Shown: positions 19,147-55,812, counted from the whole stretch's first letter. The stretch is DNA of 56,317 nucleotides, filler included, from Candidatus Desantisbacteria bacterium CG1_02_49_89 (GCA_001871075.1; 4 parts of 4 records of this genome joined end to end with filler, not necessarily neighbours in it); one strand, 5' to 3'. Notes: generated by a model not told the origin, from the sequence alone. Translations and numbers: made by a program.

Positions 19147-19547
19147 TTTCCACGAAAGCACGAAAGTATAACGAAATAAACCACAGAGGCACGGAGGCAC
19201 AGTCCGCCCGTCTTTCAGCGGGCGAGACCTCGCCCCGATGTTAATCGGGGCGGGAGACTACCTTGTAAATTTTCTGGCTTTTGCTGATAACTGACCGTAT
19301 AAAACGAGTTCCCCTTTCTGCTTTCTTGAGAAAGCAGGGGAACAACTCATAACTGACAACTGCTTTTGCAACACCGAATTAACACGAATAATGCTTTGGG
19401 CGGGCAAGCCCGCCCCTACGCGCACGCAAGCCTAAAGGCTTGCCCTACGAAACCCAACCTGTATAAACTTTGTAGCCTGTGTAAACTTTATAAACTCTGT
19501 AAACTATTTTATGCTGACTGCTGGCCACTGGACACTGGACACTGTTT
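19147..19547. repeat. Intergenic mosaic of tandem arrays, GTAG/CTAC REP-like hairpins and a TCCGCC...GGCGGG mini-element (19203-19254)
   Basis: At least six repeat families seen elsewhere in the window are concatenated here. Confidence 0.8.
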
Positions 19548-19548
19548 A

Positions 19549-19890
19549 TCAGCCCGGAGGCCACTCCAGCTTCCTGCCTCCGAGCATGTGGTAATGGATA
19601 TGGTAAACCGCCTGCCCTGCGTTGGGCCCGCAGTTCACAACCACCCTGAACCCGTCAACAAGGTTTTTCTGCTGCGCTATGGTGATCGCGGCTTTGTGCA
19701 CGCTGTAAACCAGGTCTTTATCCTCATCTTTAAGCCCCAGCAAAGTCGGTATGTGTTTCTTAGGCACGATCAATATGTGGACAGGCGCCTTCGGGTCAAC
19801 GTCATTAATGGCAAGCACATTGTCGTCCTCATACTCAATTTTGCTCTGGACCTCCTTCTTTGCTATCTTGCAGAATATGCACTCCGCCAT
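19549..19890 (-). CDS. hinT: Histidine triad nucleotide-binding protein (HIT)
   Basis: CIFCKI, P.APVHILIVPKKH, AGQAVYHIHYH, LEWPPG. Confidence 0.95.
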   Translation of the reverse strand: MAECIFCKIAKKEVQSKIEYEDDNVLAINDVDPKAPVHILIVPKKHIPTLLGLKDEDKDLVYSVHKAAITIAQQKNLVDGFRVVVNCGPNAGQAVYHIHYHMLGGRKLEWPPG

Positions 19891-19964
19891 GCTTTCCTCC
19901 TTGATTACACAGATTTTTAAATATGATTACACTGATTTTAAATTTTGAATCTGTGTAATCAATT

Positions 19965-20870
19965 TCAAAACTCACGGATGGACTTGAACTCGTTAAACCT
20001 TCTTTCCACGTCAACGATGGAAATTTTCTTAAGAACTTCCAGGCCGAACCCCTCCGCGTTGTGGGACGCGATCGCGCTTCCGTATATCATCGCTTTCCTG
20101 ACGTTCCACTCGCTCACATCATCCGTCTTGGCAAGAAAACCTGTCAATCCCCCTCCGAAACAGTCCCCGCAGCCTGTTGGGTCAACTACGTTCTCCAGCG
20201 GGTAGCTTGGAGCGCTGAAATGCGCTGCCCTTGTGAAAAGCAGGGCGCCGTGCTCACCTTTTTTGATGATCACCGCCCTGGGCCCCATGCCCAGCGCCGA
20301 TTTACCTGCCCTGGAAAGATTGGGCATTTCGAAAAGCTCCCTTGCCTCTCCGTCGTTAAGGAGCAGCACGTCTATCTTCTTTATGACTTCCTTCACTTTT
20401 TCCCTTTTGTGCTCTATCCAGAAATTCATCGTATCCGCGATAACAAGATTAGGACTCCTTATCTGGGAAAGGACATCCAGCTGAAGCTGCGGGTCTATGT
20501 TCCCCAGAAAAATAAATCTTGCGTCCCTGTATTCCGCGGGCAGGTCCGGTTTGAATGACGCGAGCACGTTCAGTTCGGTTTTGAGGGTCTTTGCCTCGTT
20601 CATGTCGTATTCGTAAGATCCCTGCCACCTGAAAGTCTTCGCGTTCTTCTCTTTCTTCAGGCCGTCAAGTGAGATGTTCCTTTTTCCCAGTATCTGGAGC
20701 GCGTCCTGCGGGAAATCCTCGCCCACCACCGCGACTATGCCCGGCCTGCAGAAAAAACTCGCGGCGTATGAAGCGTATGTCGCGCTCCCGCCCAGCACAC
20801 CTTCGGCCTTGCCGAAAGGCGTCTCTATCGAATCGAGTGCCATTGTCCCGACTATAACTGCGTCAACCAT
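19965..20870 (-). CDS. PfkB family carbohydrate/nucleoside kinase
   Basis: GGSATY, DTMNFW, KKGEHGA, DPTGCGDCFGGG. Confidence 0.92.
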   Translation of the reverse strand: MVDAVIVGTMALDSIETPFGKAEGVLGGSATYASYAASFFCRPGIVAVVGEDFPQDALQILGKRNISLDGLKKEKNAKTFRWQGSYEYDMNEAKTLKTELNVLASFKPDLPAEYRDARFIFLGNIDPQLQLDVLSQIRSPNLVIADTMNFWIEHKREKVKEVIKKIDVLLLNDGEARELFEMPNLSRAGKSALGMGPRAVIIKKGEHGALLFTRAAHFSAPSYPLENVVDPTGCGDCFGGGLTGFLAKTDDVSEWNVRKAMIYGSAIASHNAEGFGLEVLKKISIVDVERRFNEFKSIREF

Positions 20871-20892
20871 TTTCGTCCTCCCGCTCAAATAC

Positions 20893-21032
20893 AGTATCAA
20901 AGTGTCAACGTGTCAGAGTATCAGAATTAATTCTAAATCAACTCAAAGGTCAAAGGTTAAAAGTCAAAGGTCAAAACTAATAATGTATTATACTTTTGAC
21001 TTTTGCGATTTGACATTTGCGATTTGCGATTC
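20893..21032. repeat. Octamer array plus GTCAAAA / TTTTGAC heptamer inverted pair
   Basis: Visible directly. Confidence 0.75.
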
Positions 21033-21036
21033 GAAT

Positions 21037-21804: not shown

Positions 21805-21921
21805 TGCTTTTCTCCGTAAAATCGGTCATTGGTCATTAGTCATTTGTCATTAGTTAGAAATATTTATTTATTAAACTATCTTATATATGATTTTTAACTG
21901 GCTAAACTGACATAACTTATT

Positions 21922-21950
21922 ATTATATATCATTTTAAGCGAAAAGTCAA
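21922..21950 (-). promoter_or_regulatory. Sigma-70 promoter for rsmE-pfkB-hinT
   Basis: TTGACT-17-TATAAT on the minus strand. Confidence 0.7.
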
Positions 21951-21951
21951 C

Positions 21952-21983
21952 AAAAAAGCGGGGTTTTAACCCCGCTCTTTTTA
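21952..21983. terminator. Intrinsic terminator, probably bidirectional
   Basis: A6-GCGGGGTT-TT-AACCCCGC-TCTTTTT. Confidence 0.8.
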
Positions 21984-22031
21984 TTTATGTAACTCAAACC
22001 TTCAGGTTTGAGCCTGATTGTCTCTGTCCGT

Positions 22032-22238
22032 TTAACGTTTCAGCATCCCCTCAGGTTCCTTCAGGTTCTGGAATCCCTGGAGATAATCGTCATACCGGAG
22101 CGGAGACTCTATGCCGAAACCTGCAAGCATATCTATCGCTTCGCTCATGGAATAACCGAGTTCCTCAGCCATCTTCCCGATGGATGCCTTCCCCGAACGG
22201 TACATCTTGAACCAGTAGAAAGTCCAGCCTCCATTCAA
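22032..22238 (-). pseudogene. UPF0175-family antitoxin-like gene, C-terminal part
   Basis: Y..GK.S.GK.AE.LG.S..E..D.LA.FGI pattern; no RBS; begins right at repeat R1; N-terminal part appears at 23008-23097. Confidence 0.7.
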
Positions 22239-22239
22239 C

Positions 22240-22267
22240 GTAATTAAGTATTGTGTCCCCGGAATTA
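22240..22267. repeat. Repeat R1 copy a (GTAATTAAGTATTGTGTCCCCGGAATTA)
   Basis: 27/28 identical direct repeat at 23160-23187. Confidence 0.9.
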
Positions 22268-22295
22268 CGAATTACGGAATTATGCGGAATTAAAG

Positions 22296-22595
22296 TCAAG
22301 TACTAGACTTGACTTCTTGTCTTATTCCCCGGTCTATCCATTCGCGCATAAGTTTTTGGTAAGGGGCCTTTTTAATTTTAGCGATTTCTTTTGTTTTTTC
22401 TATTTCCCAATTTGCCAGGCGAATAGAGACTAATTTTTTAGTTGCTCTTTCTTTGATTTTATGAATTAAGGCAGGCGACAAAAGAAACAAGTCGTTTACT
22501 TCCTTAAGTTCCTCTAAATAGTCAGTTATACTATGTGTATCCCAAAACCTTAATTCATCTTCCAAATTTTTGAAATGCGGGATTTTTCTTTTCAT
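22296..22595 (-). CDS. BrnA/CopG-like antitoxin
   Basis: IPHFKN..DE..FWDTH, VSIRL, PYQ.LMREWI; overlaps the toxin stop. Confidence 0.85.
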   Translation of the reverse strand: MKRKIPHFKNLEDELRFWDTHSITDYLEELKEVNDLFLLSPALIHKIKERATKKLVSIRLANWEIEKTKEIAKIKKAPYQKLMREWIDRGIRQEVKSST

Positions 22596-22867
22596 AATTT
22601 TAATTTCCTCCTGTATAATCTTTTTTCTTCCTCATTCATATCCCTCGCAGTTATTACTTGAACATCCTTAACACCTTCTAAAAATTCAAAAACAACGATT
22701 AAATATCGGCCCGAAAATGTTCTGCCAAAAACCAAATATCTGCCTTGCCTTGTTTTTAAAAGAAAATATTTTGATACAAAAACTTCCTCTGTTTCATCTG
22801 GTCTGACATCGTGATTCCCGATATGTTCTATATTATTATCATTCCAAACAAACGATTTCATTTTCAA
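22592..22867 (-). CDS. brnT: BrnT family toxin
   Basis: F.W...NIEHI..H.V...E.EEVF, GRT..GRYL.VVF, VITARDM...E.RLY. Confidence 0.88.
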   Translation of the reverse strand: MKMKSFVWNDNNIEHIGNHDVRPDETEEVFVSKYFLLKTRQGRYLVFGRTFSGRYLIVVFEFLEGVKDVQVITARDMNEEEKRLYRRKLKL

Positions 22868-23007
22868 GGGATACTCCTACTACTGTATTTACATTATAGT
22901 ATATACAAAAAAGAAATTTTGTCAAGAAAAAAATGATTTTTTTATGGAATTAACTGTTGAGGTTGTTGCATTTGGGTTTCCAGTGATTTATTTCCTCGAG
23001 TTCAATT

Positions 23008-23097
23008 TTATCTTGATCGGTGCTCTTTATGTAACTTTGACAGCTTCTCTATCTTGTCAAGTTCTCCCCTATTTAAACGCAGGCTCATTACGCTCAT
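23008..23097 (-). pseudogene. N-terminal RHH-like fragment (MSVMSLRLNRGELDKIEKLSKLHKEHRSR*), likely 5' half of the UPF0175 gene
   Basis: Hand translation; GGGAGA RBS upstream; VMSLRL beta-strand then helix; premature stop after 29 aa. Confidence 0.6.
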
Positions 23098-23159
23098 TTT
23101 ATTTTTCTCCCTTTATCTTCTCTTCCGCGTCACCTACGGTAATCCGCTGGGAAATCCGA

Positions 23160-23187
23160 GTAATCAAGTATTGTGTCCCCGGAATTA
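23160..23187. repeat. Repeat R1 copy b
   Basis: Direct repeat of 22240-22267. Confidence 0.9.
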
Positions 23188-23247
23188 TTACTTGATCGCC
23201 TCAAAATAATTGATTGTGGGGCGTCTGAACGATCAAATTACACAAAA

Positions 23248-23853
23248 TTATAGTTTTTCTTTATCTTTTTGAGTGCCTTCTTGAATTGTTCGTTGCGAAT
23301 AAATAATGTCAATTGCAGCTACATTTGAATTAAACCAAGTCTTTGTCATTGTAATTTGGGTCGAACGGAGTAACCAGGTAATATCTAAAGAATTTTTTAC
23401 TTCCGTGAGCTTACCATATTTGTCTTCTAAAATTTTTACCAAAGAATTCCACACCTCATTCAATTCAATGCTGTTAAAATAGCCTCCGTCCTTTGGTTTT
23501 ACTGCAAGTGTAACTTCTTTTAATTTTTCATTACTATCAAAGTCAAATAGAACTATAGTAGGGTGATCAAACATTTTGTCTTCATATCTAATAGAATCAA
23601 CTTTGTTAAAAAACTTTGCCCACTTCTTATTTGTTTCCAATTTTAATGTTAATTCTTCCCACTTAACATCATTTATCGCAAGTTTTACTGCTTCTTTTGT
23701 CATTCCCCATTTTGCGTTTCTGTATCCGCCCGGGTCTAAAATGGTTTGAGTATTTAGGTCACCAATTTTTTCGACTATAGTATCAGCAAAACAATTAAGA
23801 GTGCAAAACATAATAATTGAGGCAGATAAAAAAATGAGTCTTTTCATGATCAA
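23248..23853 (-). CDS. Hypothetical exported protein
   Basis: AGGAG RBS, N-terminal signal peptide, GYRNAKWGMT..V motif, AT-rich. Confidence 0.8.
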   Translation of the reverse strand: MIMKRLIFLSASIIMFCTLNCFADTIVEKIGDLNTQTILDPGGYRNAKWGMTKEAVKLAINDVKWEELTLKLETNKKWAKFFNKVDSIRYEDKMFDHPTIVLFDFDSNEKLKEVTLAVKPKDGGYFNSIELNEVWNSLVKILEDKYGKLTEVKNSLDITWLLRSTQITMTKTWFNSNVAAIDIIYSQRTIQEGTQKDKEKL

Positions 23854-23865
23854 CTCCTGATATAA

Positions 23866-23913
23866 AAAAAGGGGGTCAGACCTTGAATATTGAATTATTT
23901 GTTACGCAGACCT
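23866..23913. repeat. Repeat R2 copy a (AAAAAGGGGGTCAGACCTTGAATATTGAATTATTTGTTACGCAGACCT)
   Basis: Perfect 48-bp direct repeat at 25163-25210. Confidence 0.93.
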
Positions 23914-24345
23914 CCCTCCTAACATAACTGGCGGGTCTTCGAAAAGGTCTGCCCTACGAAAGACGTCCCGATAAATCGGGACCGCTACAAAAATACGCAA
24001 ACCTCCCTCCTAAATAATTGGCAGCTTGCCCGCCAGTTAGTTTGGCGGGGGTCTTCGAAAAGCCTTGCCCTACGAAATTATTCGGGCTCAATCCTCCTTA
24101 AAAATTGGCGGACAGGTAAATTGGGCCCCTACGCGCAGGCTGAAGCCTGCGGCTACCAATGTGCGATGAATCGTCCACCAAACTGACTGGCGGACAGGCA
24201 CCGCTATCCGCCCCGACGAAAAGTCGGAGCGGGCAAAATCCCCTCCGAAGAGTCCGCATACTCCGTCCTTTCGGAGTCATCGGACCTGTGTCCCCCTTTA
24301 AAAAGGGGGAAATAGATCGGGCGTCATAAATACCGCCCCTACAGG
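23905..24345. repeat. REP-like palindrome mosaic (CTAC-ended hairpins with nested insertions)
   Basis: About 160 bp shared with 26052-26262 and partly, inverted, with 54291-54370. Confidence 0.85.
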
Positions 24346-24466
24346 TCACCTGATAATGATGCTTTTGCACAAAATAAAAGGTGCTTTACCCGCAAACCGG
24401 CGGTTCAGCGCCCTGTAATACATAAAATCAGTAAAGCCATATAAGGAATTTATCGGCGACAAAATA

Positions 24467-24643
24467 TCACACGCGGATAGGTTTTTTTTCCACCCGTTTT
24501 AATTTTAAGTTTGCTTCTTTGAGAAACTTCTCTGATTCTTCGTGAATCCTTTTGATCCTCTGCTCAGGAGTTAGGTGTTTTTCTTCTTCATAAACCTTTT
24601 CCATTATCTCGTGGATTTCTCTCATTACTTTTGATTCTTTCAT
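24467..24643 (-). CDS. Small charged protein (58 aa), probable partner/antitoxin of the PIN protein
   Basis: Hand translation MKESKVMREIHEIMEKVYEEEKHLTPEQRIKRI...KKPIRV; ATGA overlap with the PIN stop; below the ORF-track cutoff. Confidence 0.75.
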   Translation of the reverse strand: MKESKVMREIHEIMEKVYEEEKHLTPEQRIKRIHEESEKFLKEANLKLKRVEKKPIRV

Positions 24644-25110
24644 GGTTCAACCACCTCCAACGGTGAACAGATTTCTATTTCAGAATAGTCCAGTAATTTA
24701 TTCACTCCGTTTACTTCTGTCCTTGTTTTTAGTTTGACGATATGCTGAAAATTCCAGCTCACTATGACATCCATTTCATTTATTACCGCCACGGCAATAT
24801 GGATAGCGTCCGCACGGTACTTTTCAGGAATTATACCTTCCCTTATATACCTATCAGCCAATGCTTCTGCTTCAGAATCAATTTCCAGCATCTGAGGAGC
24901 AACCCTGCGCACTAAATCCTCCACCTGGGTCTTTCTTGGCTCAGACGCCCTGCCTATTTCTCTGGCGACTTCTTCAGAAATAAAGATTCCTTCAGCTTGC
25001 TTGGAAAGAATCTTAAAAAGCTTTTCTGTAACCTCCCTTTTTTCCGGAGCATCATCGGCAAACATAAAGTTAAATATACTGGTATCAAAGTAGTAGTTTT
25101 TCTTCTTCAA
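24640..25110 (-). CDS. PIN-domain (VapC-like) protein
   Basis: YFDTS, S.EV..EI, DAIHIAVA, IVSWNFQH, ICSP.EV. Confidence 0.9.
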   Translation of the reverse strand: MKKKNYYFDTSIFNFMFADDAPEKREVTEKLFKILSKQAEGIFISEEVAREIGRASEPRKTQVEDLVRRVAPQMLEIDSEAEALADRYIREGIIPEKYRADAIHIAVAVINEMDVIVSWNFQHIVKLKTRTEVNGVNKLLDYSEIEICSPLEVVEP

Positions 25111-25162
25111 TTATACTCCCGGACATTCCCCCGTTTCCCTTTTATTATAAGGGTAAAACGCG

Positions 25163-25210
25163 AAAAAGGGGGTCAGACCTTGAATATTGAATTATTTGTT
25201 ACGCAGACCT
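25163..25210. repeat. Repeat R2 copy b
   Basis: Identical to 23866-23913. Confidence 0.93.
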
Positions 25211-25313
25211 AAAGGTTTGCCACTACATTCCGATCTAAGGGTAATGATACTCAAATATTTGTGTTACAGAGCACTAGTTGTTTTTCTTGGTTGTTGTTGT
25301 TTGTTATTGTTTT

Positions 25314-25577
25314 TTAAGAAGAGTAGGTTCTTTCATTCCTTCGCCTTATATAGATGATTTCAATGAGTTTATTTATTAAATCAAACCTGTATCCAATCCT
25401 AAAATTACCTTGTCTTATTCTATAATAAAATTCTTTACCTTTTTTAATTTTCTTTACTCCTATTGGTAATGGATTAAATTTAAGAGCCTTAATATTATCA
25501 GCAATCCGTTGAAGGTCATCCCTGCTGATATTTTCAATATCTTTTTTAACGCTTTTCTTTACAATAAGATTAAACAT
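25314..25577 (-). CDS. relE: RelE/ParE family toxin
   Basis: L..NP.P.G.KK.K, YRIRQGNFRIGY, I..R...Y. Confidence 0.9.
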   Translation of the reverse strand: MFNLIVKKSVKKDIENISRDDLQRIADNIKALKFNPLPIGVKKIKKGKEFYYRIRQGNFRIGYRFDLINKLIEIIYIRRRNERTYSS

Positions 25578-25806
25578 TTAGACCTTTATGTTTTAAATGT
25601 TTATTCCATTCCGCTTCACTCATTGAGGGTTCATTCTTTCGGGACTCTATAATAACCAAATCTTCTTCATCTTCTTTCATTTCCTCGATCTTCTCGGCAA
25701 CCGCCTCAGTAACAAAATGAGATATTACGACCCCGTTTTGTTTGCGGATGTTTTGTAATTCTTTAATAAGAGCTTCAGGCATTCTGACAGCCATCAATTT
25801 TATCAT
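25570..25806 (-). CDS. RHH antitoxin (RelB/DUF6290-like)
   Basis: MAVRMPE.L N-terminal RHH, acidic EDEEDL tail; GGAGGTG RBS; overlaps the toxin start. Confidence 0.85.
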   Translation of the reverse strand: MIKLMAVRMPEALIKELQNIRKQNGVVISHFVTEAVAEKIEEMKEDEEDLVIIESRKNEPSMSEAEWNKHLKHKGLNV

Positions 25807-25827
25807 TTTTATCACCTCCAATATCTA

Positions 25828-25954: not shown

Positions 25955-26366
25955 ATGTCGGATGAATCCGACCGCTCCAAATATGCGATAAATCGCAGCG
26001 GACAAAATCCCCCTATGTCCCCCTTTATTAAAGGAGGAAACGGGAATTATTACGCAAGGCTCCCTCCTAATAAAATTGGCAGCTTGCCCGCCAGTTAGTT
26101 TGGCGGGGGTCTTCGAAAAGCCTTGCCCTATCCGCCCCGATGGACATCGGGGCGAGACCTCGCCCCAAAGGGGCGGGCGAAATATTCGGGTTCAATCCTC
26201 CTTAAAAATTGGCGGACAGGTAAATTGAGCCCCTACGCGCAGGCTGAAGCCTGCGGCTACCCACAAGGTTACCTTTGGGCGACCAAGGTCGCCCCTACGC
26301 GCATCTTCACCCACATCCCGCAAACAACACCCTCACCTCAATCCTCCCCCGTGTAAGGGGGAGGAA
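25955..26366. repeat. REP-like palindrome mosaic with a 47-bp mini-insertion at 26131-26177
   Basis: Aligns to 23995-24158 apart from the insertion. Confidence 0.85.
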
Positions 26367-36390: not shown

Positions 36391-36499
36391 GGTTCCCTCC
36401 TGTAATAAAAGTGTCAACGTGTCAAAGTATCAACGTGTCAAAGTTTAAAGCAGTAACTCTGATACTCTGATACTCTGATACTGTGATACTGTATTCAAA

Positions 36500-37034
36500 A
36501 ACGGGGGAGGTCATAAGCCGGGTCCTGTCCTCTTAAAACAGTGAGTAGTGATGAGTGAAGAGCGAAAAGTCAAAGACTTCCCACTTTTCACTTTACACTT
36601 TACACTGTATCTTGAGGTGCGATCATTTATCTACGCGACCTACCCGGAACCCTGCGATAAGCAGATGGCGAGCGGCCTTAAGTTCCTTTTTTGGTCTTGC
36701 TCCGGATGGGGTTTGCCGTGCCTCCGATGTTGCCATCGGAGCGGTAGGCTCTTAACCTCCGCCCCGACTTTCGTCGGGGCGAGACCTCGCCTCGCTTGCC
36801 CTGCCTTATCGGCAAGGATGGCGGGCGGGTGCCTTTTCACCCTTACCGGAAAAAGGAAGCGGAAAATTGGGACTGTCCCTTTTTTTCCGCCGTTTTTTCC
36901 GGCGGTATTTTTTCTGTGGCACTTTCCATTCCCGGCGTTCTGCCGGGATCCCTGATTGTTCAGGGCACCCTGCTCTTTGGAGCCCGGACTTTCCTCCCCG
37001 ATGTTACATCGGAGCGACCGCAACCTCCCCCGTT
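36500..37034 (-). ncRNA. rnpB: RNase P RNA, type A-like, enlarged to about 535 nt
   Basis: GAGGAAAGTCCGGGCTCC, GGAAAGTGCCACAGAAA, GGTAAGGGTGAAA, GGCAAACCCC..GGAGCAA, AGATAAATGA, ACAGGACCCGGCTTA; P1 GGGGGAGGT/ACCTCCCCC. Confidence 0.96.
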
Positions 37035-37039: not shown

Positions 37040-37325
37040 CTCTATTGCTCTATTGCTCTATTGTTCATTAGTATAAGGAATCAGGGCTCCCACCTTAAGG
37101 ATTTGCACCTTAGATATTGGCGCATCCGCCAATTCTTAAGGCGGAGGCGGGTCTTCGAGAAGCCCTGAGTTATCCGCCCCGATGTCCATCGGGGCGAGAC
37201 CTCGCCCCAAAGGGGCGGGCAATAAATTCCTTGTTGTTGCGTTGACACTTTGATGCGTTGTCCGATGACTCCGAAAGGACGTCGCATACGGACTCTTCGG
37301 AGACACTTTGACACGCAGTTTGCGT
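37040..37325. repeat. Intergenic mosaic: CTATTGCT octamers, mini-elements at 37173-37219 and 37261-37301, TGACAC octamers
   Basis: Components match 26131-26177, 24244-24284 (inverted) and 28450-28506. Confidence 0.8.
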
Positions 37326-46910: not shown

Positions 46911-46911
46911 G

Positions 46912-49900
46912 CTGTGGACGTTCAATATCGGAGTGCCGGTGGCTTCGTCTCCGGCAGTGACCGGGAACGCGCTTTATGTCGGGGCGTATGACGGCAACGT
47001 TTACGCGTTCGCGTCCCCTGTGGTAACCCCGCCTCCTGTCAGCGACACGGCTTCGTTCATGTATATCAGTTCCGCGTCCGTTCAGGGGGATGGTTCTTCA
47101 CCGTGCACCGTAACAATCACACTCTTGGAATCAGACGGAACGCCTGTGCCTGAAAGGAGCGTGACGATCTCGTCGTCGCGCGGCCCGGCATATGACATTA
47201 TCACCCAGCCCGGTTCAACCACGGATTACAACGGGCAAAGCACCGCGGTTATAAGATCAGTATATACGGGAACAACGACCATTACCGCGCACGCAGGACC
47301 GGTGGAGGTTACGGGCGCGGTGAACAGGGATGGCTCAGCTGGCATATGGCGCTTTGACGAGAATTCCGGTGTTGCGGCCGGCGACGATTCCGGTAACAAC
47401 AACACAGGGACGATAGCGAACGGGATATGGATACCCGGGAAGCGCGGACCCTGCCTGGATTTCAACGGCACCAGCGGGAAGGTTTCGCTTGCCCTGCAGC
47501 CGGAAATGTCAGGCGGGTTCACGTTCATGGCATGGTGCAGGTGCGACAACCAGACCTGGTACCAGGATCTGTTCAACAACAACAGGTTCTTTATAAGGAA
47601 GGACGGGCCTGCGGAGGGGAACGATTTTACCGCGTTCGTCAAGCTGACAGACGGAAGCCCCGAACCCAGGGCTTCGTCAGGTGTGGTTGCCGATACCGGG
47701 GCGTGGCATCATGTGGCTGCTTCCTGGGACGGGGTTTCCTTAAAGATCTACGCGGACGGGGATTTTAAGCAGTCGCAGGCCAGGCCAGGTTCCTTATACG
47801 AAACTCCTGTTACCGCGCAGATAGGCGCTGGCGAGCAGGCAAGCCTTGATTCAAACTGGTGGGACGGCGCTATAGACGACGTGCGCCTTTACAGCAGGGC
47901 GCTGTCAGCTGACGAGATAAAGGCGGCCTGCGAGAACAGGGCGACAATAAGTTTCACCGCTTACGCGCAGGGCGGCGCGTATATAAGGCAGCCGCCCTTA
48001 GTCATCGCGCACCGCGGATTTTCATCGCAGGCTCCTGAGAACACGCTCATAGCTTTCGAGAAAGCCATTGAAGTCGGGGCGGATTACGTGGAGCTGGACG
48101 TGTATACAACTTCGGATAACGCTCTGGTAATAATGCACGACCCCACTGTTGATCGCACGACCGACGGCACCGGAACTGTTGCCAGCAAGACCCTCGCGGA
48201 ACTGAAGGCCCTGGATGCCGGTTCCTGGTTCAGCGCGAGGTTCACAGGCGAAAGGGTGCCTACACTGGAAGAATCCCTGCTGGTCACTAAGGGCAGGATA
48301 AGGATGGTGATTGAGATCAAAGCGGCTGACGTGGCAGCGGTATGCGCCCTTGTTGACAGCCTTGGAATGAGGGATGAGGTGATAATTTCGGCTTTCAGCA
48401 TGGCTCAGGTCACCCAGGCGCACAACCTTGGTTTCAGGACAGTGGGCCTGATAGGTGACATCAAGACCTGGCAGAGCGTAAAGACCGCTTTGGGTGACGT
48501 TGTCGGGTGCGACCAGAGCTATCTTAACGACGATAGCTTTTCTTACGTTGCCGCGGCGGAAAGCGCGGGGCTGGAAGTGTGGCCCTGGACCTGCGACAAT
48601 GAAATGGCTATGATGAGGCTGACAGACCTGGGAGTGGGCGGGATCTACACAGACTATCCTGACTGGGCAATGAATATCAGGAACGATATAAAGCGAACAG
48701 GCTGGTGGGCAAGGTGGCAGGTTGAGGACAAGGCAAGGGACGGAGGCGCGGGCAATCCCACAGAATCAAACCGCAACATAATAAAGCCTTCGGCGATCAG
48801 GTCTTCAGGCACCAGGATAAGGATAAAATTCCGTTCCCGCACAACCCTGCCTTCCGCGATGATCTTCTCAAGCGTGTATATCGCGCAGGCGGATACCGAT
48901 ACCAGGAACATCGTGGATTCCACGAAGGCCCCGATCACATTCAGGGGTTCGGAAAGCATCACGCTCCCGCAGAATTCATACGAATACAGCGACTGGTTTG
49001 ATTTTGATCTCAATGCCTCCAATACCTATTCGTTAACCTACCGCATGGACCCGGGATACGCGCGCGCGTGGAACGGGGCTGCGGGCACTGTGAACGCCTA
49101 CTGGGCCGTGGGGGACAGCACGGCAATAAACGACTGGGCAGGGCTTTCCGGAGTGAACGCGAGCGTGTCTCTTTACAACATGGAGCTTATTGAGGTTCAG
49201 GGCCCCAGGGAAGGCACTTCTTATTTCCTGAATTCTCCTTCAGCTGTCCCTGCTGACGGCAGTTCTTCTTCGAGCGTTTCGTTCTTCGTGAAGGACAGCG
49301 TTGGCAGCGCCCTGGGCGGCAAGGCCTTGACTTTTTCAACGCCGCGCTCCGCCAAAGACATACTTATCCAGCCCGGGACAACTGACGCTAACGGCCAGGC
49401 AACAGGGACGATAAAGTCTTTCTACGCGGGGCAAGGAGATGTAACCGGTTATTGCGGCCCGGAAAGGGTAATGCAGAATCTTCTTATTAATCCTTCTTTC
49501 GAGCAGGGTTCTTCAGGCTGGTCCCTTGGGGTAAACCACGCCATAGACACCGCCGCGCGCACGGGTTACGGGACAATAAGGTTCACAGGCACTGCTGCTC
49601 CGGGACAGGCTTCCTTTCAGACCGCAGGCGTTTCCGCGAATACCGCCTACAGGATAAGCGCCTGGATAAAAAGCAGTCTTTCGGCTGGCAGCGCGACGAT
49701 AGACTGGCTTGAATACACCTCCGGGGATACTCTGCTTGAGGACGGCATCAATGTCGGGCCTTATTCAATGAACTCAGGGGTTTGGTCTTTCTGCTCCTGG
49801 AAGTTCACATCAGAATCAACGACAGCAAAGGTCACAGTCAGGTTCGTGACAGACGGAAACCCCACAGGCACTGCCTGGTTTGACGATGCCAGACTTGAAA

Positions 49901-52900
49901 GGGTGCCTGCAGTGGATTTCAGGGCTACAAGATTAAAGTTCATCACCCCTTCATTCTATGCTGTCAGGAACAGCAATTCCCCGCAGATCGTTGTTGCGGC
50001 AGTCGGGGAGCTGGGTGACGATACTGACCCGGCTTTTTCAGAAACCGTTTCCGTTCTTTCTTCGTCTTCAGGCGGCAAGTTCTCAGTTTCAGGCACTCCA
50101 TGGAAAGACACGAGCGTCCTTAAGTTCGTATCCGGTTCAGCGGTTTTCTATTACAAGGACGCCAACACGGGCAGTCCCGTTATTACCGTTACACGTTACA
50201 CGTTACACGTTGATACACAAACAGAGTTCATATACGACGCGAGTATGTCCGATACCCGCTCTTACCTTTCCTCCCAGGATTTCCTGGCCCTGCCTGACGG
50301 CGCTGATTCAATAACTATTTTCGCTTTCATAATGGATACCTACGCGAATCCGATCTCGGGCAAAACCGTCACGCTTTCAGCTGCAAGGGGCAATTCCACG
50401 ACTATCAGCGCAAACCCGCAGGTCACTGACGCGGACGGGCGCGCGACGTTCACTCTTTCTTCAGCAAATGCCGGCGTTGATACTATAAGCGCGTTCTGCA
50501 ACGGCGAAACATTTTCAACGCTCTTCTTTGACGATTTTGAATTCCCGTCTTTTTCACAGGAAGCCTGGGTTGTTTATGACGGAGACTGGTCCTGCACCGG
50601 CGGTTATTACAAAGGGCTGGACAGCGGGGACGACAATTATATCGCGTACGGTTCAGCTGCAGGCAGCGTGAACTGGAGGAATTACACGGTTGAGCTTGCG
50701 TTCAGAAGCGTTTCCTTCGGAAGCGACTGGAGGGACAGCGCCAGGGTGAGTTTCAGGTACAAGGACGCGGGTAACGCTTATACAGCGGATTTCATGAAGA
50801 ACAACCACGTCCGCCTGCACAAGAAAAGCCAGGGCATTTCCACCGGCGATTCAGACTGCGCCGTTGACTACGACGCTGCAGCGATAGATTACGCGGCTGG
50901 CGGCTGGCACACCGTTAAAATAACATGCTTGGGGAATTACGTGCAAGCCTGGCTGGACGGCGTAAAGATATTCGACTGGCAGGATAACGATTACAACGGG
51001 GTAAGATGGGTGGAAAAAGGAAGGCTGATGCTTTCCGCGCGCAAAGCCAGCGGCGCGAGCGGGAACACGGAGATCCATTTCGACAATATCCGCGTTTATC
51101 CCTGCCTTGTGGAGTTCTCCCAGCCTTCTCCCAGCGCGATCAGTTCCTACATAACGTTCAGCCCTTATGATGTTATTACGGGCGGAAACTCAGAATGCGT
51201 TGTTGTTGTTACGATTAACGACGCGGACGGCGTTCCGCTTTCCGGCAAAACTATCACGTTTGTTACCGCGAGGGGAAGTTCCGATACAGTTACACCTTCA
51301 GGCTCCCAGGTAACAGGCGCGGACGGCAGCTGTACCTACACGATAAAGTCAGACCTTGCAGGATTGGATACCATTACCGCATTCTGTTCCGGGACGATCT
51401 CGCGAGGGATAAACAAATACGGGGCAAGGGGTATCTGGCACCTGGACGGCAGCACCGCGGACGCGTCAGGCTGCGGTAACAACGGTGTTAACACCGGTGC
51501 TGTCTGGACAGAGGGAAGGTACGGCTCAGGCCTGCAGTTTGACGGCGTAAACGATTACGTAAGGGTAACCGATACGGACACTCTTGATGTAACCGACGCG
51601 ATCACTATAGAGGCGTGGATCTACCCCACAGGCCTTCCGAATTCCTACAACTCAATAGCGGCAAAGTACTGGTCAGCTTCGAACCAGAGGTCGTACGAAT
51701 TCACGATCTCGGCTGCCACGCAGAAACTGCAGGTATGGCTTTCCACCAACGGCACAGGCGGCGCGGCGTACGACGGGAACGGCGTCATACCGCTGAATGC
51801 ATGGTCGCACGCCGCGTTCACCTGGAACAGGGCGGACGGGAGCATAAAGATGTATCTGAACGGCAATACCGACGCGATCCGCAGCGGCCCGGTTTCGGCG
51901 CTTTTCCCAAGCACAGCGGATTTCATCATAGGGGACAAGCACGACCTGGCGAACCACTTCAAGGGTATCATCGACGAGCTCAGGATCTACAGCCGGGTCC
52001 TGGCAGACGATGAAATAAGATCTTCCTATAACGCGAAAGCAAACTTTTTATTCGTGTCCTTTGAACCAAGCCTTGCGTTCGTGTCTTCACCGGTCACAAC
52101 CACTGCCAACAACCCGTCTCCCTATATAACCGTGGAAGCAAGGATCGGCTCAGGCGTAAAAGACACAACGTTCAACGACTCGGTTATCCTTTCTTCGTCT
52201 TCTTCAGGCGGAAGGTTCTCAACAAGCAGGACTGCCTGGGCTGATACCACGGTTATTTTCTTCTCAGCCGGGTCAGGCAGTTTTTATTATAAGGATCCTG
52301 CGGCGGGGAATCCTGTAATAACCGCGTATCGCGTATTGTTTATCGCGGATACACAAACTGAGACGATATTAGAGCAGGGAGTGAACGAGACCGCTTCATA
52401 CATAACCTTTACGCCTTACCGGATACTTGCGGATGGGACATCTGTATGCTCCGCGGTTGTGACCATAAGCGACACATTCGGGTTCCCGATGAGCGGCAGG
52501 ACAGTGACTCTTATAACAGCCAGGGGAGCGCAGGACACTGTAGCCGGAAATCCGGGGACAACGGATACATCCGGGCAAAGCGTGTTTTCAATATCTTCGA
52601 TATATTTAGGCCAGGACACGATAACCGCTGTTTGCGGCGCGAACACTGTTACAAGGGGTGTGCAGAAATATTCCGCTGTTGCCATATGGCACCTGGACAC
52701 TGACACGAACGACGTATCCGGCAACGGCTATAACGGCATCCTGCGCGGAGCGCTCTGGACAAGCGATGGTTTCGGCTCAGCCGCGGAATTCGACGGCGTT
52801 AACGACTACATAACAATTCCTGCCATGAACGTGACTATGACCGGGGTCACTATCGAAGCGTGGGTAAAACTGCACAAACTTCCTGCCGAGATGCCGGAGA

Positions 52901-54294
52901 ACATAGGCGGGATATACGATTCGCTGGACGATAAATACATTCTGTATGAAGACAAGGGTAACAACGAGCTCAGGTTCAAGGTCACAACCGGGGTCAGCGC
53001 TGAGCGGCCCGGGATCCCCGCGGCTTCGCTTGTCAAGGACCAGTGGGTCCACATAGCAGGCGTGTATAACGGGACCCAGGCAAAGATCTATATGAACGGG
53101 ACCCTGCGGGACACGCACGCGCTTACCGGCGCGATCTCAGGCGCGCAGAACGCGGCAATAGGAAGGAACGGGCTGGATACAACCGCTTATTTCGACGGGA
53201 TGGTCGACGAGGTCAGGATATACAACAGGGCGTTCAGCCCTGAGGAGGTCAGGGCGGAGTATGAATCGCGCGCGAACATCTATTTCACGGCGAGCATGCT
53301 GAATATCACCACTCCCCAGTTCAGGATAAGGGCAGGGGACACTTCGCCGCTTATGATAGTAGCGGCTCAGGATGCGAGCATGAACACCGACGTTTCATTC
53401 AATAATACAATAAACCTATCCACAAGCTCTAATTCAGGTTCATTTTCAGTATCAGATGTTCTCTGGCAGAATACCAGTTCAATAACGTTCTCAAGCGGCG
53501 TCGGTTCTTTCTATTATAGGGATTTCGCCGTCGGTTATCCTGTGCTGACTGCTGACCACTGGCCACTGACCACTGATACACAAACCGAAACAGTTTCCAT
53601 CCGCGCTCTCAAGTTCGCGAACACCGTGCCGTTCACGATAACAAGCATATCAACTGCCCCTGTGTTCTTAAAGGCAGAAGACGGTTCTGGGAATACAGCG
53701 GTTCTCTTTAACGATACGGTTCAACTGCTGACCACTTCAGCAAAAGGTTCGTTCTCCGTGTCAGGCACGATCTGGGCTAACACAAGCGTTATCTATCTTG
53801 CCTCAGGCTCAAAGACCGTATACTACAGGGACAAGACAGGGGGCAACCCTGTCATAACCGTTACCAGGACAGACTCCTGGACATGGACAGACACTCAACA
53901 GGAGACGGTTACAAAACCAACGGTTCTTACTTCCAAGGTACAGATGAACCTGCGTTCAGGTGAAACAGGCGTAATGCCGATGATATTCTGGCAATCAGAC
54001 ACTGTTGAATACACTGTTTACATTAGAAACATTGGAACTGAAACTGCCATTAACAACATTGTCGTAGATACAAGGTCCTTTGATACTAATTCCAACAACG
54101 CGGTGGATTACATATCCATGGATACGAACACGGTCGCAAACACGTGGGCTTATACAATAGATCCCGCGTTTACCGTTTGGATTGCAGGTGAACCTGCAAC
54201 AGGCGCAAGTAACGTGAAAGGCCTTAGATGGAGAATCGCGGTCCTTGGGATAAATGAGAGCAAGGCGATTAGATTCCGCATCCGCGTTAAGTAG
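46912..54294 (+). CDS. Giant multidomain surface protein (5' truncated): PQQ-propeller tail, Big_1 Ig, 3 LamG, GDPD, CBM-like, DUF1080-like, DUF11-like C-terminus
   Basis: SSPAV...YVGAYDG.VYA; IAHRG..APENT...ELDV...HD (GDPD); NLLINPSFE...WFDD; FFDDFE...FDNIRV; LamG WHH.A..WDG and IDE.RIY. Confidence 0.92.
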   Translation: MWTFNIGVPVASSPAVTGNALYVGAYDGNVYAFASPVVTPPPVSDTASFMYISSASVQGDGSSPCTVTITLLESDGTPVPERSVTISSSRGPAYDIITQPGSTTDYNGQSTAVIRSVYTGTTTITAHAGPVEVTGAVNRDGSAGIWRFDENSGVAAGDDSGNNNTGTIANGIWIPGKRGPCLDFNGTSGKVSLALQPEMSGGFTFMAWCRCDNQTWYQDLFNNNRFFIRKDGPAEGNDFTAFVKLTDGSPEPRASSGVVADTGAWHHVAASWDGVSLKIYADGDFKQSQARPGSLYETPVTAQIGAGEQASLDSNWWDGAIDDVRLYSRALSADEIKAACENRATISFTAYAQGGAYIRQPPLVIAHRGFSSQAPENTLIAFEKAIEVGADYVELDVYTTSDNALVIMHDPTVDRTTDGTGTVASKTLAELKALDAGSWFSARFTGERVPTLEESLLVTKGRIRMVIEIKAADVAAVCALVDSLGMRDEVIISAFSMAQVTQAHNLGFRTVGLIGDIKTWQSVKTALGDVVGCDQSYLNDDSFSYVAAAESAGLEVWPWTCDNEMAMMRLTDLGVGGIYTDYPDWAMNIRNDIKRTGWWARWQVEDKARDGGAGNPTESNRNIIKPSAIRSSGTRIRIKFRSRTTLPSAMIFSSVYIAQADTDTRNIVDSTKAPITFRGSESITLPQNSYEYSDWFDFDLNASNTYSLTYRMDPGYARAWNGAAGTVNAYWAVGDSTAINDWAGLSGVNASVSLYNMELIEVQGPREGTSYFLNSPSAVPADGSSSSSVSFFVKDSVGSALGGKALTFSTPRSAKDILIQPGTTDANGQATGTIKSFYAGQGDVTGYCGPERVMQNLLINPSFEQGSSGWSLGVNHAIDTAARTGYGTIRFTGTAAPGQASFQTAGVSANTAYRISAWIKSSLSAGSATIDWLEYTSGDTLLEDGINVGPYSMNSGVWSFCSWKFTSESTTAKVTVRFVTDGNPTGTAWFDDARLERVPAVDFRATRLKFITPSFYAVRNSNSPQIVVAAVGELGDDTDPAFSETVSVLSSSSGGKFSVSGTPWKDTSVLKFVSGSAVFYYKDANTGSPVITVTRYTLHVDTQTEFIYDASMSDTRSYLSSQDFLALPDGADSITIFAFIMDTYANPISGKTVTLSAARGNSTTISANPQVTDADGRATFTLSSANAGVDTISAFCNGETFSTLFFDDFEFPSFSQEAWVVYDGDWSCTGGYYKGLDSGDDNYIAYGSAAGSVNWRNYTVELAFRSVSFGSDWRDSARVSFRYKDAGNAYTADFMKNNHVRLHKKSQGISTGDSDCAVDYDAAAIDYAAGGWHTVKITCLGNYVQAWLDGVKIFDWQDNDYNGVRWVEKGRLMLSARKASGASGNTEIHFDNIRVYPCLVEFSQPSPSAISSYITFSPYDVITGGNSECVVVVTINDADGVPLSGKTITFVTARGSSDTVTPSGSQVTGADGSCTYTIKSDLAGLDTITAFCSGTISRGINKYGARGIWHLDGSTADASGCGNNGVNTGAVWTEGRYGSGLQFDGVNDYVRVTDTDTLDVTDAITIEAWIYPTGLPNSYNSIAAKYWSASNQRSYEFTISAATQKLQVWLSTNGTGGAAYDGNGVIPLNAWSHAAFTWNRADGSIKMYLNGNTDAIRSGPVSALFPSTADFIIGDKHDLANHFKGIIDELRIYSRVLADDEIRSSYNAKANFLFVSFEPSLAFVSSPVTTTANNPSPYITVEARIGSGVKDTTFNDSVILSSSSSGGRFSTSRTAWADTTVIFFSAGSGSFYYKDPAAGNPVITAYRVLFIADTQTETILEQGVNETASYITFTPYRILADGTSVCSAVVTISDTFGFPMSGRTVTLITARGAQDTVAGNPGTTDTSGQSVFSISSIYLGQDTITAVCGANTVTRGVQKYSAVAIWHLDTDTNDVSGNGYNGILRGALWTSDGFGSAAEFDGVNDYITIPAMNVTMTGVTIEAWVKLHKLPAEMPENIGGIYDSLDDKYILYEDKGNNELRFKVTTGVSAERPGIPAASLVKDQWVHIAGVYNGTQAKIYMNGTLRDTHALTGAISGAQNAAIGRNGLDTTAYFDGMVDEVRIYNRAFSPEEVRAEYESRANIYFTASMLNITTPQFRIRAGDTSPLMIVAAQDASMNTDVSFNNTINLSTSSNSGSFSVSDVLWQNTSSITFSSGVGSFYYRDFAVGYPVLTADHWPLTTDTQTETVSIRALKFANTVPFTITSISTAPVFLKAEDGSGNTAVLFNDTVQLLTTSAKGSFSVSGTIWANTSVIYLASGSKTVYYRDKTGGNPVITVTRTDSWTWTDTQQETVTKPTVLTSKVQMNLRSGETGVMPMIFWQSDTVEYTVYIRNIGTETAINNIVVDTRSFDTNSNNAVDYISMDTNTVANTWAYTIDPAFTVWIAGEPATGASNVKGLRWRIAVLGINESKAIRFRIRVK

Positions 54295-54612
54295 GGCAAG
54301 CCTTTTCGAAGACCCCCGCCAAACTGACTGGCGGGCAAGCTGCCAATTTTGTTGGGAGGGAGGCTTGCGTCGTTTTGTAGCGGTGCGACGTTTCGTCGCA
54401 CCCGAATATTTCGCCCGCCCCTTTGGGGCGAGGTCTCGCCCCGACCGTAGCCCGCCACGGTTATTGGCGGGCGCAGGTCCCTGTGTTAAGTCCCGGTTTT
54501 ATCGGAACTACAGGGATCGGGGCGGATAGGGGCTCAATTCATTGAACCCGGATATTTCGTAGGGCAAACCTTTAGGCTTGCGTGTTTTGGGAGTAGGGGC
54601 TTTAGCCCCGTG
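54291..54612. repeat. REP-like palindrome mosaic (GTAG-initiated hairpins) with nested 113-bp insertion at 54414-54526
   Basis: Reverse-complement matches to 26052-26200 and 28412-28452. Confidence 0.85.
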
Positions 54613-54750
54613 ATCTTATGAATGGTTCAGGGAGACCCTTGATTTTCCTTGTGTTAAACAACAAATATTAACTTTTCGCTATTTTATACTTGACAAAGCA
54701 TTCATAAACCACTCCTTATCCACCTTCAAAACGGTGGATTTTTTCTTTTT

Positions 54751-54778
54751 TTGACAAATCATAGAAAATGGTTATAAT
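54751..54778 (+). promoter_or_regulatory. Sigma-70 promoter
   Basis: TTGACA-16-TATAAT upstream of AGGGAG and ATG 54814. Confidence 0.65.
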
Positions 54779-54813
54779 ATATAAGCCGTATTCTTTAATG
54801 TAAGGGAGAAATC

Positions 54814-55626
54814 ATGCATCCGGCTATGGCTGATTCTTTGAAACGCCTGCTGAAGCGATTATCCGAAGATAAAAGGTGCCTGGGTATTTTTCTCAGTGGT
54901 TCTTACGCGAAGCAGACCGAGGACGAATATTCTGACCTGGACCTGGTCGTTGTAGCGGAAAGATCGGGTTACACGGAATTCAGGGACAGCCTGCGCAGGG
55001 TCTGCGAAGAAATTATGGGCTCGATACCCGCGTGGCTGCCTGAGGGCGAGACCCCTGAAGCCGTGAACTACGCCTTCCTTTTTGAGGCAGAAGACGGTAT
55101 ATTTCTCTACGATGTTTATGTTATCAAGGATAAAGATCTTCCGAATTGCCACCCGTATGACGCGAAACACATATTGTTCGACCGGACAGGGGTTTTGGCA
55201 GGTTCTGTGAAAGAGCGCAGGCCCGCCGGCTTCAACGCGGACGATCTTTTAAGGATGGTAACCTGCTACTGGGTTTACATGTACCTGAACGGCAAGTACC
55301 TGAAACGCTCTGATGTTTACAAGCTGCTTTACATCCAGCAGACACTTTTCCAGGACCATATCGCGGTCCTGCATGCTTTCTGCCCTGACAAGGACTGGAC
55401 TTGGTGGGCGGTAAACGTCAAGTACCTGACGAAAACTAAAAGAGAAGAAATGCTCATCTATTTTAAGAACACCACTCCTAAGGACATAGCCTCGGTTCTC
55501 AAGAAAGAAATGGACATATTTTCCCAAGACGCGAAAAAGGCCTGCCTGAAATACGGCCTGGAATATCCCGCAGACGCCGAGAAGGCGGTGCGAAAGCATC
55601 TTGTAGAATTTTTCAGTAACAAGTAA
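54814..55626 (+). CDS. Nucleotidyltransferase (Pol-beta superfamily; aminoglycoside/lincosamide NTase-like architecture)
   Basis: LSGSYA....DEYSDLDL, ILFDRTG, helical C-terminal domain. Confidence 0.8.
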   Translation: MHPAMADSLKRLLKRLSEDKRCLGIFLSGSYAKQTEDEYSDLDLVVVAERSGYTEFRDSLRRVCEEIMGSIPAWLPEGETPEAVNYAFLFEAEDGIFLYDVYVIKDKDLPNCHPYDAKHILFDRTGVLAGSVKERRPAGFNADDLLRMVTCYWVYMYLNGKYLKRSDVYKLLYIQQTLFQDHIAVLHAFCPDKDWTWWAVNVKYLTKTKREEMLIYFKNTTPKDIASVLKKEMDIFSQDAKKACLKYGLEYPADAEKAVRKHLVEFFSNK

Positions 55627-55812
55627 CAAACGCCAAGTAACAAGTTTAATACATGTTTGCAGACTCAGTTTACATAGTTTACAAAGTTATTTATTTCGTG
55701 CTTTCCTCGCCCATCCTTTCAGGTGGGCGAAGTCTCGCCCGCTGAAAGACGGGCGGAGTGCTTTCGTGGAAATTTGTGGTTTCAAATGCAGCAGTTTGTC
55801 AGTGGTGGGAAA

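Follow-up and report, generated by a model that had tools for sequence, protein, structure and literature searches.

What are the short palindromic sequences that recur between positions 19203 and 55757 of a stretch of Candidatus Desantisbacteria bacterium CG1_02_49_89 DNA (GCA_001871075.1), do they form one mobile family, and how did they reach their present sites? Each begins with TCCGCC, ends with GGCGGG and in most cases contains two hairpins; a first-pass annotation, made from the sequence alone, had proposed a family of mini-insertions with filled and empty sites and no target duplication. The whole stretch that we analyzed, 56,317 nt and hereafter the window, consists of four draft-assembly contigs joined artificially in arbitrary order and orientation, and all counts of copies and sites given below refer to it.

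Six twin hairpins of 47 to 113 nt, spread over three of the four contigs, and one single-hairpin relative of 27 nt were located in the window (Table 1), at the seven positions first annotated, with the last refined from "about 55705" to 55706–55757. The twins conform to the frame T-CCGCCC(tip)GGGCG-AGACCT-CGCCC(tip)GGGCGG-G. A search with the 16-nt core GGGCGAGACCTCGCCC, allowing up to two mismatches, returned six loci (10 matches when both strands of this near-palindrome are counted), compared with 0.03 expected by shuffling, and none of 100 shuffles reached 10 matches; the 7-mer TCCGCCC alone was not enriched in the window (18 matches against 11.0 expected, with 3 of 100 shuffles reaching 18). 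A covariance model (R2) was trained on five window copies and one foreign copy, and run over the whole window with filters off; building such a model was a check that the first-pass annotation had suggested. It recovered exactly the six twin copies at 48–70 bits, including the nested copy at 54414–54526 that was absent from the training set, with the next match at 10.9 bits; the single hairpin at 24207–24233 scored only 8.6 bits. DNA folding of eight sequences, the seven window copies and one foreign copy (L020, described below), predicted hairpins with z-scores of −2.9 to −6.2. The double-hairpin repeat is real, and constitutes a genuine non-autonomous repeat family.

The two hairpins of a twin, H1 and H2, are inverted relative to each other (head-to-head) on either side of an invariant linker, AGACCT. 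In 6/6 twins, reverse-complementing the H1 frame gives that of H2, and the unit is therefore a head-to-head pair of one hairpin resembling a repetitive extragenic palindrome (REP). It is bounded by the terminal inverted repeats TCCGCCC and GGGCGGG, complementary at 6 of 7 terminal positions. Across the aligned copies the frame is invariant and the tips are variable, the latter belonging to a few types that are recombined among copies. One H1 is common to the copies at 19203 and 55706, its arms showing 94% complementarity across 36 nt. In the 55706 copy, alone among the six twins, the loops are complementary too and the whole copy folds as one long hairpin; in the other five the H1 and H2 tips differ. 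The 26131 and 37173 copies are identical at 45 of 47 positions, their sole difference being a flipped 4-nt loop (GGAC/GTCC), which agrees with the loop inversion noted at the outset, and a second flip relates TTTC in the 36758 copy to GAAAA at 24207. Tips also take up further inserts, namely an extra hairpin in H2 of the 36758 copy and, in the H1 tip of the 54414–54526 copy, a 71-nt segment (54445–54515) made up of one hairpin and a GTAG-tagged REP (GTAG at 54447–54450); further nesting had been ascribed to this copy at the outset.

Neither GTAG/CTAC nor CGTC is part of the element in the seven window copies or in two foreign copies from the metagenome-assembled genome (MAG) "Elusimicrobia bacterium UBA9627"; the CTA found beside three copies belongs to the interrupted host REP, because the empty site at 24072 carries it. 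The single hairpin at 24207–24233 has an 11-nt 5′ arm identical to that of H1 in the 36758 copy, and a loop that is the reverse complement of the corresponding H1 loop. It is a relative of the family by arm identity. It may have arrived by insertion, as originally suggested, and this is uncertain in that the paralogue of its mosaic has a different hairpin in the same slot.

Comparison of filled and empty sites bears on how the copies arrived. The blocks 23994–24157 and 26051–26261 are paralogous: 80 nt on one side of the site are 95% identical, 79 nt on the other are 97.5% identical, and the single alignment gap corresponds exactly to the 47-nt element, placed between GCCCTA and CGAAAT with unambiguous borders and nothing duplicated. 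Three empty sites had been proposed. The one just described (24072^24073 against 26131–26177, where ^ marks the point of insertion) is clean. The pair 23981/24200 shares only ~8 + 5 nt (ACCGCTA/CAAAA), a recurring boundary between REP modules without a paralogous site, and in the pair 28448/37171 the right flank alone is homologous (37 nt at 92%), the left flanks being different REP modules. The 55706 copy interrupts a CACGAAAG array that continues beyond the element; the 17 nt to its left, ATTTCCACGAAAGCAC, recur unchanged at 14832 and 19133, two loci without an interruption. A flanking direct repeat of at least 2 nt was absent from 8 of 9 copies (seven in the window and two in UBA9627); the sole exception, the 19203 copy, has a 2-nt AG match, and the 8-mer register of its host array makes a duplication unlikely. 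No TA follows the element at the sites where it entered after TA. The proposed lack of target duplication was thus upheld at the paralogue pair, in an 8-mer array and in the RNase P RNA gene discussed next. Judged from these sequence comparisons, the twin-hairpin family was inserted precisely and without target duplication. The elements at 26131 and 37173 show 96% identity. The left flanks are two versions of a repeat that we call R and agree in only 43 of 64 aligned columns, and the sequences to the right are unrelated (21/43). Simple co-duplication is disfavored because the elements are far more alike than their flanks, which indicates an element younger or more constrained than its surroundings.

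One copy lies within the gene for a catalytic RNA. In the Rfam alignment of the bacterial type A RNase P RNA gene, the P13 loop measures 83 nt where the consensus has 11, and these 83 nt consist of the 72-nt element plus 11 nt. Because removal of the element leaves the consensus length, this copy is a derived addition, and the polarity of the event is given. RNA folding places both hairpins of the 36758 copy as independent structures beside an intact P14. The same gene also has a long P12 extension and, near its 3′ end, an insert of ~95 nt composed of inverted 7-mer tandem repeats (about 36540–36620); nothing in it aligned to one 24-position segment of the model, which we take to be a P18-like region. 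Tandem-repeat inserts are known in cyanobacterial RNase P RNA, and the 7-mer insert looks similar. No paper combining rnpB with a miniature inverted-repeat insertion was found in the one library searched.

Next, we considered the choice of target. Four of the seven window copies stand at TA^C, and three of those split CTAC, the complement of GTAG, just as had been described; treating the copies as independent gives a chance probability of ~4e-7 for the TA^C count, and counting the three R-linked copies as a single event raises it to ~1e-3. The left flank is YTA in 4/7 copies; the remaining window copies have CACAG, GCAC, and AACC, and both UBA9627 copies have TCG. GTAG-type REPs, as described in PMC8266576, are palindromes after a conserved GTAG needed by TnpA_REP, with cleavage at CT or CA beside the hairpin. 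Since CTAC is the complement of GTAG and insertion is at CTA^C, the element interrupts the tag by which another repeat family is recognized, separating its G from TAG. With a strict definition (stem of at least 7 bp, loop of 3–8 nt), the window contains nine GTAG-preceded hairpins against 0.74 expected, with a maximum of three in 50 shuffles; a loose definition (stem of at least 6 bp, loop of up to 30 nt) gave 13 against ~10.8 in shuffles, which is not above chance. All 9/9 GTAG REPs are in sense orientation. The pattern of sites shows that the family prefers the unpaired CTA^C tag of GTAG-type REPs, and does so non-randomly. The broader proposal that the element targets other hairpins held for 5/7 window copies (four at REP tags and one in the P13 loop), and failed for the 2/7 that lie in tandem 8-mer arrays. 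The two UBA9627 copies agree with the proposal as well. Entry into the loop of a host hairpin is seen only in RNase P P13 and in the apical regions occupied in UBA9627, because the R repeat and the m2 module of the REP arrays fold no better than shuffles (z −0.84 and −0.36).

The GTAG REPs stand head-to-tail at 23925–24160, 26230–26300, 19398–19450, and 54370–54610, with a common architecture (7-bp stem, 4-nt loop) and different stem sequences; head-to-tail REP dimers are absent or rare in most genomes according to PMC3733652.

The orientation of the copies is uniform, the strand reading T...G being opposite to the coding strand of both neighboring genes in 7/7 window copies. On any one contig the genes share a direction, and strand composition varies with it; a replication-strand bias is for this reason inseparable from a transcription-related one.

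To place the family beyond this genome, public genome contigs were searched with the 16-nt core, giving at least 116 loci, 114 of those listed being chance matches in high-GC genomes. Among the matches listed, the frame occurred at two loci only, both in UBA9627, a MAG of 33–35% GC. As a control, R2 was run on 100 of the 116 loci listed; 98 chance loci scored no more than 28.3 bits, and the two UBA9627 loci 50.4 bits. The UBA9627 version is compact, with 38 nt in the same frame, and its copies lie between inverted 8-mer arrays next to the right arm and thus occupy the apical region of a long, imperfect hairpin. The copy at L085 is antisense to both flanking open reading frames (ORFs); that at L020 lies between convergent ORFs and is uninformative on strand. 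Both copies (L020, 940–1060; L085, 225–360) are followed by the same 15 nt, CACAATCCCACTATC, which form the first unit of an 8-mer array with an inverted partner upstream; element and array may travel together in UBA9627. A distant blastn search of a plasmid collection with the 47-nt element gave five matches to Streptomyces and Azospirillum coding sequence (E = 0.8), taken as chance, and a phage collection gave no match to it. The core string appeared in no paper found in the one library searched.

On balance, we lean towards reading the family as miniature non-autonomous palindromic elements of the kind formed by REPs and by REPINs, their head-to-head doublets, moved by a strand-specific single-stranded DNA enzyme of the HUH/Y1 type encoded elsewhere. 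In such a process, the element would be excised and pasted as folded single-stranded DNA, and the mover would be a strand-specific HUH/Y1 enzyme, either the REP-associated tyrosine transposase (RAYT, also TnpA_REP) or a TnpA of the type found in the insertion sequences (IS) IS200/IS605, coded elsewhere in the genome. We infer such an engine because it would account for the hairpin ends, the missing duplication, the single orientation of the copies, and their association with REP tags.

Several observations weigh against this reading. No HUH/Y1 transposase or copy-linked recombinase was found among the 47 window ORFs scanned against Pfam, and the suggestion that copies might flank a nuclease or transposase gene was not borne out in the window. 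The described REP superfamilies are defined by a GTAG or CGTC tag, which the element lacks, and the hairpins of the element are terminal, compared with subterminal in IS200/IS605 ends. At 3/7 sites the target is not TA^C; two of these, CACAG^AGA and CAC^GAAAG, lie in 8-mer arrays, and the third, AACC^TGCC, belongs to the P13 loop. Selection acting on RNA could also produce the orientation bias, as gene direction coincides with strand composition here. There is one clean paralogous filled/empty pair only, and two copies cannot tell gain from loss. Finally, some events are possibly non-independent: the 26131 and 37173 copies both follow versions of the R repeat, and the 54526 and 26131 copies share 14 nt of right flank.

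Some candidates were tried and rejected. The sole transposase trace in the window is the C-terminal tail of an IS630-type DDE_3 domain at the edge of contig 2 (15013–15237, +), which probably explains the assembly break there. Together with the TA target it raised the possibility of an IS630/Tc1-type miniature inverted-repeat transposable element (MITE), which was rejected as no TA is duplicated. An intrinsic terminator was rejected as no T/U run follows the hairpins on either strand (the flanks after the last hairpin read CGAAAT, CAATAA, CAAAAT, AGACTA, TGCCTT, and GAAAGC, the opposite strand having TAGGGC or similar) and one copy is inside rnpB. Inspection of the element ends by eye revealed no consistent guide/cleavage pairing of the IS608 style.

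The surroundings of several copies raise the question of whether transposition is needed at all. The twin hairpin could be one module of mosaic REP arrays, similar to bacterial interspersed mosaic elements (BIMEs), shuffled by homologous recombination, gene conversion, and hairpin-promoted deletion. Three of the six twins (26131, 37173, and 54526) and the single hairpin do lie in arrays that combine a common set of modules (R, m1, m2) in varying order; 14 nt past the element are shared between the copies at 26131 and 54526, the slot of the single hairpin is filled by a different hairpin in the paralogue, and palindromes are deletion-prone, which we counted in favor of this explanation. Yet the RNase P P13 copy and the two copies in 8-mer arrays have no homologous flanks for recombination, the element borders lack short direct repeats for slippage deletion, the element is 96% identical at two sites whose left flanks match at just 43 of 64 columns, and the same frame occurs with unrelated flanks in another genome. 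Recombination among mosaic REP arrays accounts for part of the pattern and not for the RNase P, 8-mer-array or foreign copies, and as a full explanation we regard it as unlikely. That the copies are an artefact of assembly or binning, or plain segmental duplications, is suggested by little more than the draft state of the window, with its four contigs and N linkers, and is already contradicted: copies occur on three contigs with differing flanks, tips, and nested inserts, one is within a well-scoring RNase P gene, and two more are in the independent public MAG UBA9627. We give this explanation almost no credence.

A different possibility is that the twin hairpin is no selfish DNA but a selected structural motif, such as a 3′ hairpin pair that stabilizes RNA or blocks its decay, a protein-binding site or a factor-dependent terminator. 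An invariant frame with variable tips, retained in a genome of 33–35% GC, would fit such a role, as would the location of all copies between genes or in a non-coding RNA gene and their single orientation relative to transcription (7/7); REPs have been credited with roles of this sort in PMC8266576 and PMC3733652. A terminator or decay signal within RNase P RNA would nevertheless be harmful, a function for an additional P13 extension is unexpected, and neither hairpin is followed by a T/U run on either strand. The precise arrival of an identical 47-nt block would also go unexplained, and selection of this kind is compatible with mobility and does not replace it; we hold it to be very unlikely. 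Only slightly better placed, and still quite unlikely, is a tiny mobile element of the small dispersed repeat (SDR) type known from Nostocaceae, moved by neither the RAYT nor an IS200-like route and possibly via RNA. Nesting, the absence of duplication, and palindromic or tagged insertion sites fit reports on SDRs, and the uniform orientation relative to transcription, the presence of one copy in a highly expressed RNA gene, and the clean filled/empty pair of an unrelated 41-nt family in the window point the same way. The resemblance is nonetheless one of description; SDRs were found only in Nostocaceae according to PMC5861425, whereas the host here is not a cyanobacterium; and the window has no reverse transcriptase, the RVT_3 match at 37333–37755 being an RNase H-like domain. 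REP/REPIN-type elements moved by a HUH/Y1 enzyme remain our preferred reading.

The 41-nt family just mentioned is unrelated to the twin hairpin, yet also starts with TCCG. Its two copies are oppositely oriented, and one of them forms a clean filled/empty pair, with the empty paralogue at 26012^26013 and no duplication. Both small families start with TCCG, end with CGGR, and have precise filled/empty pairs without duplication, and the twin-hairpin frame is invariant across genomes of 33% and 50% GC; the twin-hairpin family is also strictly strand-specific and enters unpaired tags and loops of other hairpins, one of them in a ribozyme gene. We entertain, as a bolder but unlikely proposal, an undescribed class of ultra-small (27–47 nt) hairpin-invading elements in Desantisbacteria-like bacteria, which could be served by a dedicated structure-guided nicking and joining enzyme unlike RAYT or the IS200 TnpA; the same enzyme may also build the head-to-tail REP arrays with their changing stems.

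Table 1. Twin-hairpin copies, their sites and other features of the window (positions counted from its first nucleotide; R2 scores in bits).
Feature	Position	Strand	Details
Twin-hairpin copy, 52 nt	19203..19254	+	−21.1 kcal/mol, z −6.2; R2 69.8; tips H1 TCTTTCAG, H2 GATGTTAATC; within CACRGAGG 8-mer array, CACAG^AGAC
Single-hairpin relative, 27 nt	24207..24233	+	Outer arms TCCGCCCCGAC...GTCGGAGCGGG; ...ACCGCTA before, CAAAAT after
Canonical twin, 47 nt	26131..26177	+	R2 64.6; splits CTA^C end of GTAG-type REP in R repeat
Twin, 72 nt	36758..36829	+ (antisense to rnpB)	R2 58.9; nested hairpin CTTGCC...GGCAAG in H2
Canonical twin, 47 nt	37173..37219	+	R2 66.9; preceded by diverged R repeat ending GTTA
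Twin, 113 nt	54414..54526	-	R2 48.2; inserted at GAGCCCCTA^C
Twin, 52 nt	55706..55757	-	R2 69.0; H2 = reverse complement of H1 including loop (REPIN-like); in CACGAAAG array, CAC^GAAAG
Empty site GCCCTA^CGAAAT	24072..24073		Paralogue of filled site 26130/26178
RNase P RNA gene, bacterial type A	36498..37032	-	Rfam 201.8 bits; 535 nt against 367-position model
GTAG-tagged REP array, head-to-tail, differing stems	23925..24345	-	Host mosaic; R repeat 23981-24073
Paralogous REP array with filled site	25960..26300	-	
Third R repeat copy and REP array	54291..54610	+	GTAG-initiated; starts directly after stop codon of 2453-aa ORF
41-nt hairpin element, TCCGAAGAG...CATCGGA	24244..24284	+	Terminal inverted repeats TCCGA/TCGGA; filled site
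41-nt hairpin element, second copy	37261..37301	-	Within TTGACAC-type tandem array
UPF0175, weak match	22032-22238		In low-GC island
BrnT/CopG-type antitoxin	22296-22867		In low-GC island
PIN	24640-25110		In low-GC island
ParE-like and DUF6290	25314-25821		In low-GC island
Example tandem arrays	2722-2801, 4310-4406, 5840-5882, 18092-18165, 28471-28506, 36411-36490, 41619-41698		
N runs around TTAATTAATTAA	14913-15012, 30913-31012, 46811-46910		Joins between the four contigs

The remainder of the window gives the setting of these elements. It encodes sigma-54, rubrerythrin, an LpxC-FabZ fusion, and a PorV-like protein, and on these grounds the host is not a cyanobacterium. In the Atlas, the clusters nearest to the LpxC-FabZ protein come mostly from Verrucomicrobiota and Planctomycetota, and the closest named match of IleRS is Candidatus Desantisbacteria at 65% identity, with Omnitrophota at ~53%; the IleRS of one near relative reaches 73%. 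We accordingly regard the host as an uncultivated bacterium resembling Desantisbacteria. A low-GC island (36–39%) at 21805–26000 is dense in small toxin-antitoxin genes interleaved with REP arrays, and within it 23866–23913 is identical to 25163–25210. Almost all intergenic regions carry short tandem arrays with a period of 7–10 nt; Tandem Repeats Finder returned 89 rows for the whole window, the majority in this range. The arrays often form an inverted pair around a spacer, such that each intergenic region can form a long imperfect hairpin of its own; their unit sequences vary by locus, and the UBA9627 loci are in the same style. The 2453-aa ORF (46933–54294, +) encodes GDPD, five Big_1, three Laminin_G_3, and a 3-keto-disaccharide hydrolase domain. 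Two ORFs, 19366–19920 (+) and 55723–56316 (+), have no Pfam match, and their 5′ parts cross REPs, tandem arrays or a twin hairpin; either their annotated start codons are wrong, or they are not genes, as is probably the case for both in one way or the other.

For genome annotation, these repeats corrupt ORF starts (19366 and 55723), extend the RNase P gene to a length of 535 nt, and are a probable cause of assembly breaks. If the HUH/Y1 reading is correct, REP/REPIN-type miniature mobile DNA would reach into an uncultivated phylum, and the twin hairpin would be among the smallest insertion units with a defined frame, entering a REP tag and a catalytic RNA gene precisely and without leaving a footprint. 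With an element of 47 nt, a target of 4 nt, and empty sites in paralogues, so compact a system would suit questions of target and strand choice and of the assembly of REP arrays.

Among known systems, REPs and BIMEs served by TnpA_REP/RAYT are similar in that they are short GC-rich extragenic palindromes with many copies, head-to-head pairs, and mosaic clusters, sometimes within genes. The hairpins of the family are stem-loop-forming palindromes in the 20–50 nt range typical of REPs; by contrast, an unpaired GTAG/CGTC tag is lacking, and the conserved unpaired parts are T..., AGACCT, and ...G. The twin hairpin itself inserts into the GTAG tag of other REPs. Genuine GTAG-tagged REPs are also present in this genome, head-to-tail with differing stems, an arrangement reported as rare in PMC3733652. 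The enzyme TnpA_REP acts on REPs as folded single-stranded DNA and uses the GTAG tag to cleave next to the hairpin (PMC8266576). REPINs, as described in PMC3116915, are similar in having two inverted REP-like hairpins as the apparent replicative unit, a rarer single form, and a non-autonomous nature, and the REPIN-RAYT system is defined there by the same repeats flanking the RAYT gene (Bertels & Rainey 2011, PMC3116915). Unlike REPINs, the twin hairpin has a spacer of just the 6-nt linker, and the full long hairpin forms in 1/6 copies, the tips usually being different.

Elhai and co-workers reportedly described in 2008 that Nostoc SDR4-6 are very small, leave no target duplication, and occur nested within one another and within MITEs. 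According to PMC5861425, the HIP1 palindrome serves SDR5 as an insertion site. The likeness is by description only and reaches across phyla; the twin is about twice as long (47 against 21–27 nt), and the 27-nt single form alone reaches the size of an SDR. In Thermomicrobium roseum, GTAG-23 REPs are inserted in CCGSSCC(n3-4)GGSSCGG palindromes, as reported in PMC3733652. The H2 sequence CCGCCCC-AAA-GGGGCGG fits this palindrome consensus, and the copy at 54414–54526 holds a GTAG REP within such a palindrome; the T. roseum palindromes are described as targets, whereas here the palindrome pair is itself inserted and interrupts REP tags. Rickettsia palindromic elements are 100–150 bp long and mostly known as in-frame insertions in proteins. 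They are similar in being palindromic selfish repeats tolerated in functional genes including a structural RNA gene, and one of 526 lies in the R. bellii tmRNA gene (PMC1458961). They have no similarity of sequence or size to the twin-hairpin family.

Palindrome-associated miniature derivatives of IS200/IS605 are named PATEs. The parent IS200/IS605 elements, as described in PMC8266576, likewise have hairpin ends, cause no duplication, move by strand-specific single-strand "peel and paste", and insert beside a short specific sequence; in contrast to the twin hairpin, their hairpins are subterminal with the guide and cleavage tetranucleotides outside, and the window has no parent IS. Compared with a classical MITE, the family has the terminal inverted repeats and not the target-site duplication (e.g., TA in IS630/Tc1). 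The twin-hairpin family looks like a new variety within miniature mobile DNA of the REP/REPIN/SDR kind, and not like a wholly new class of element.

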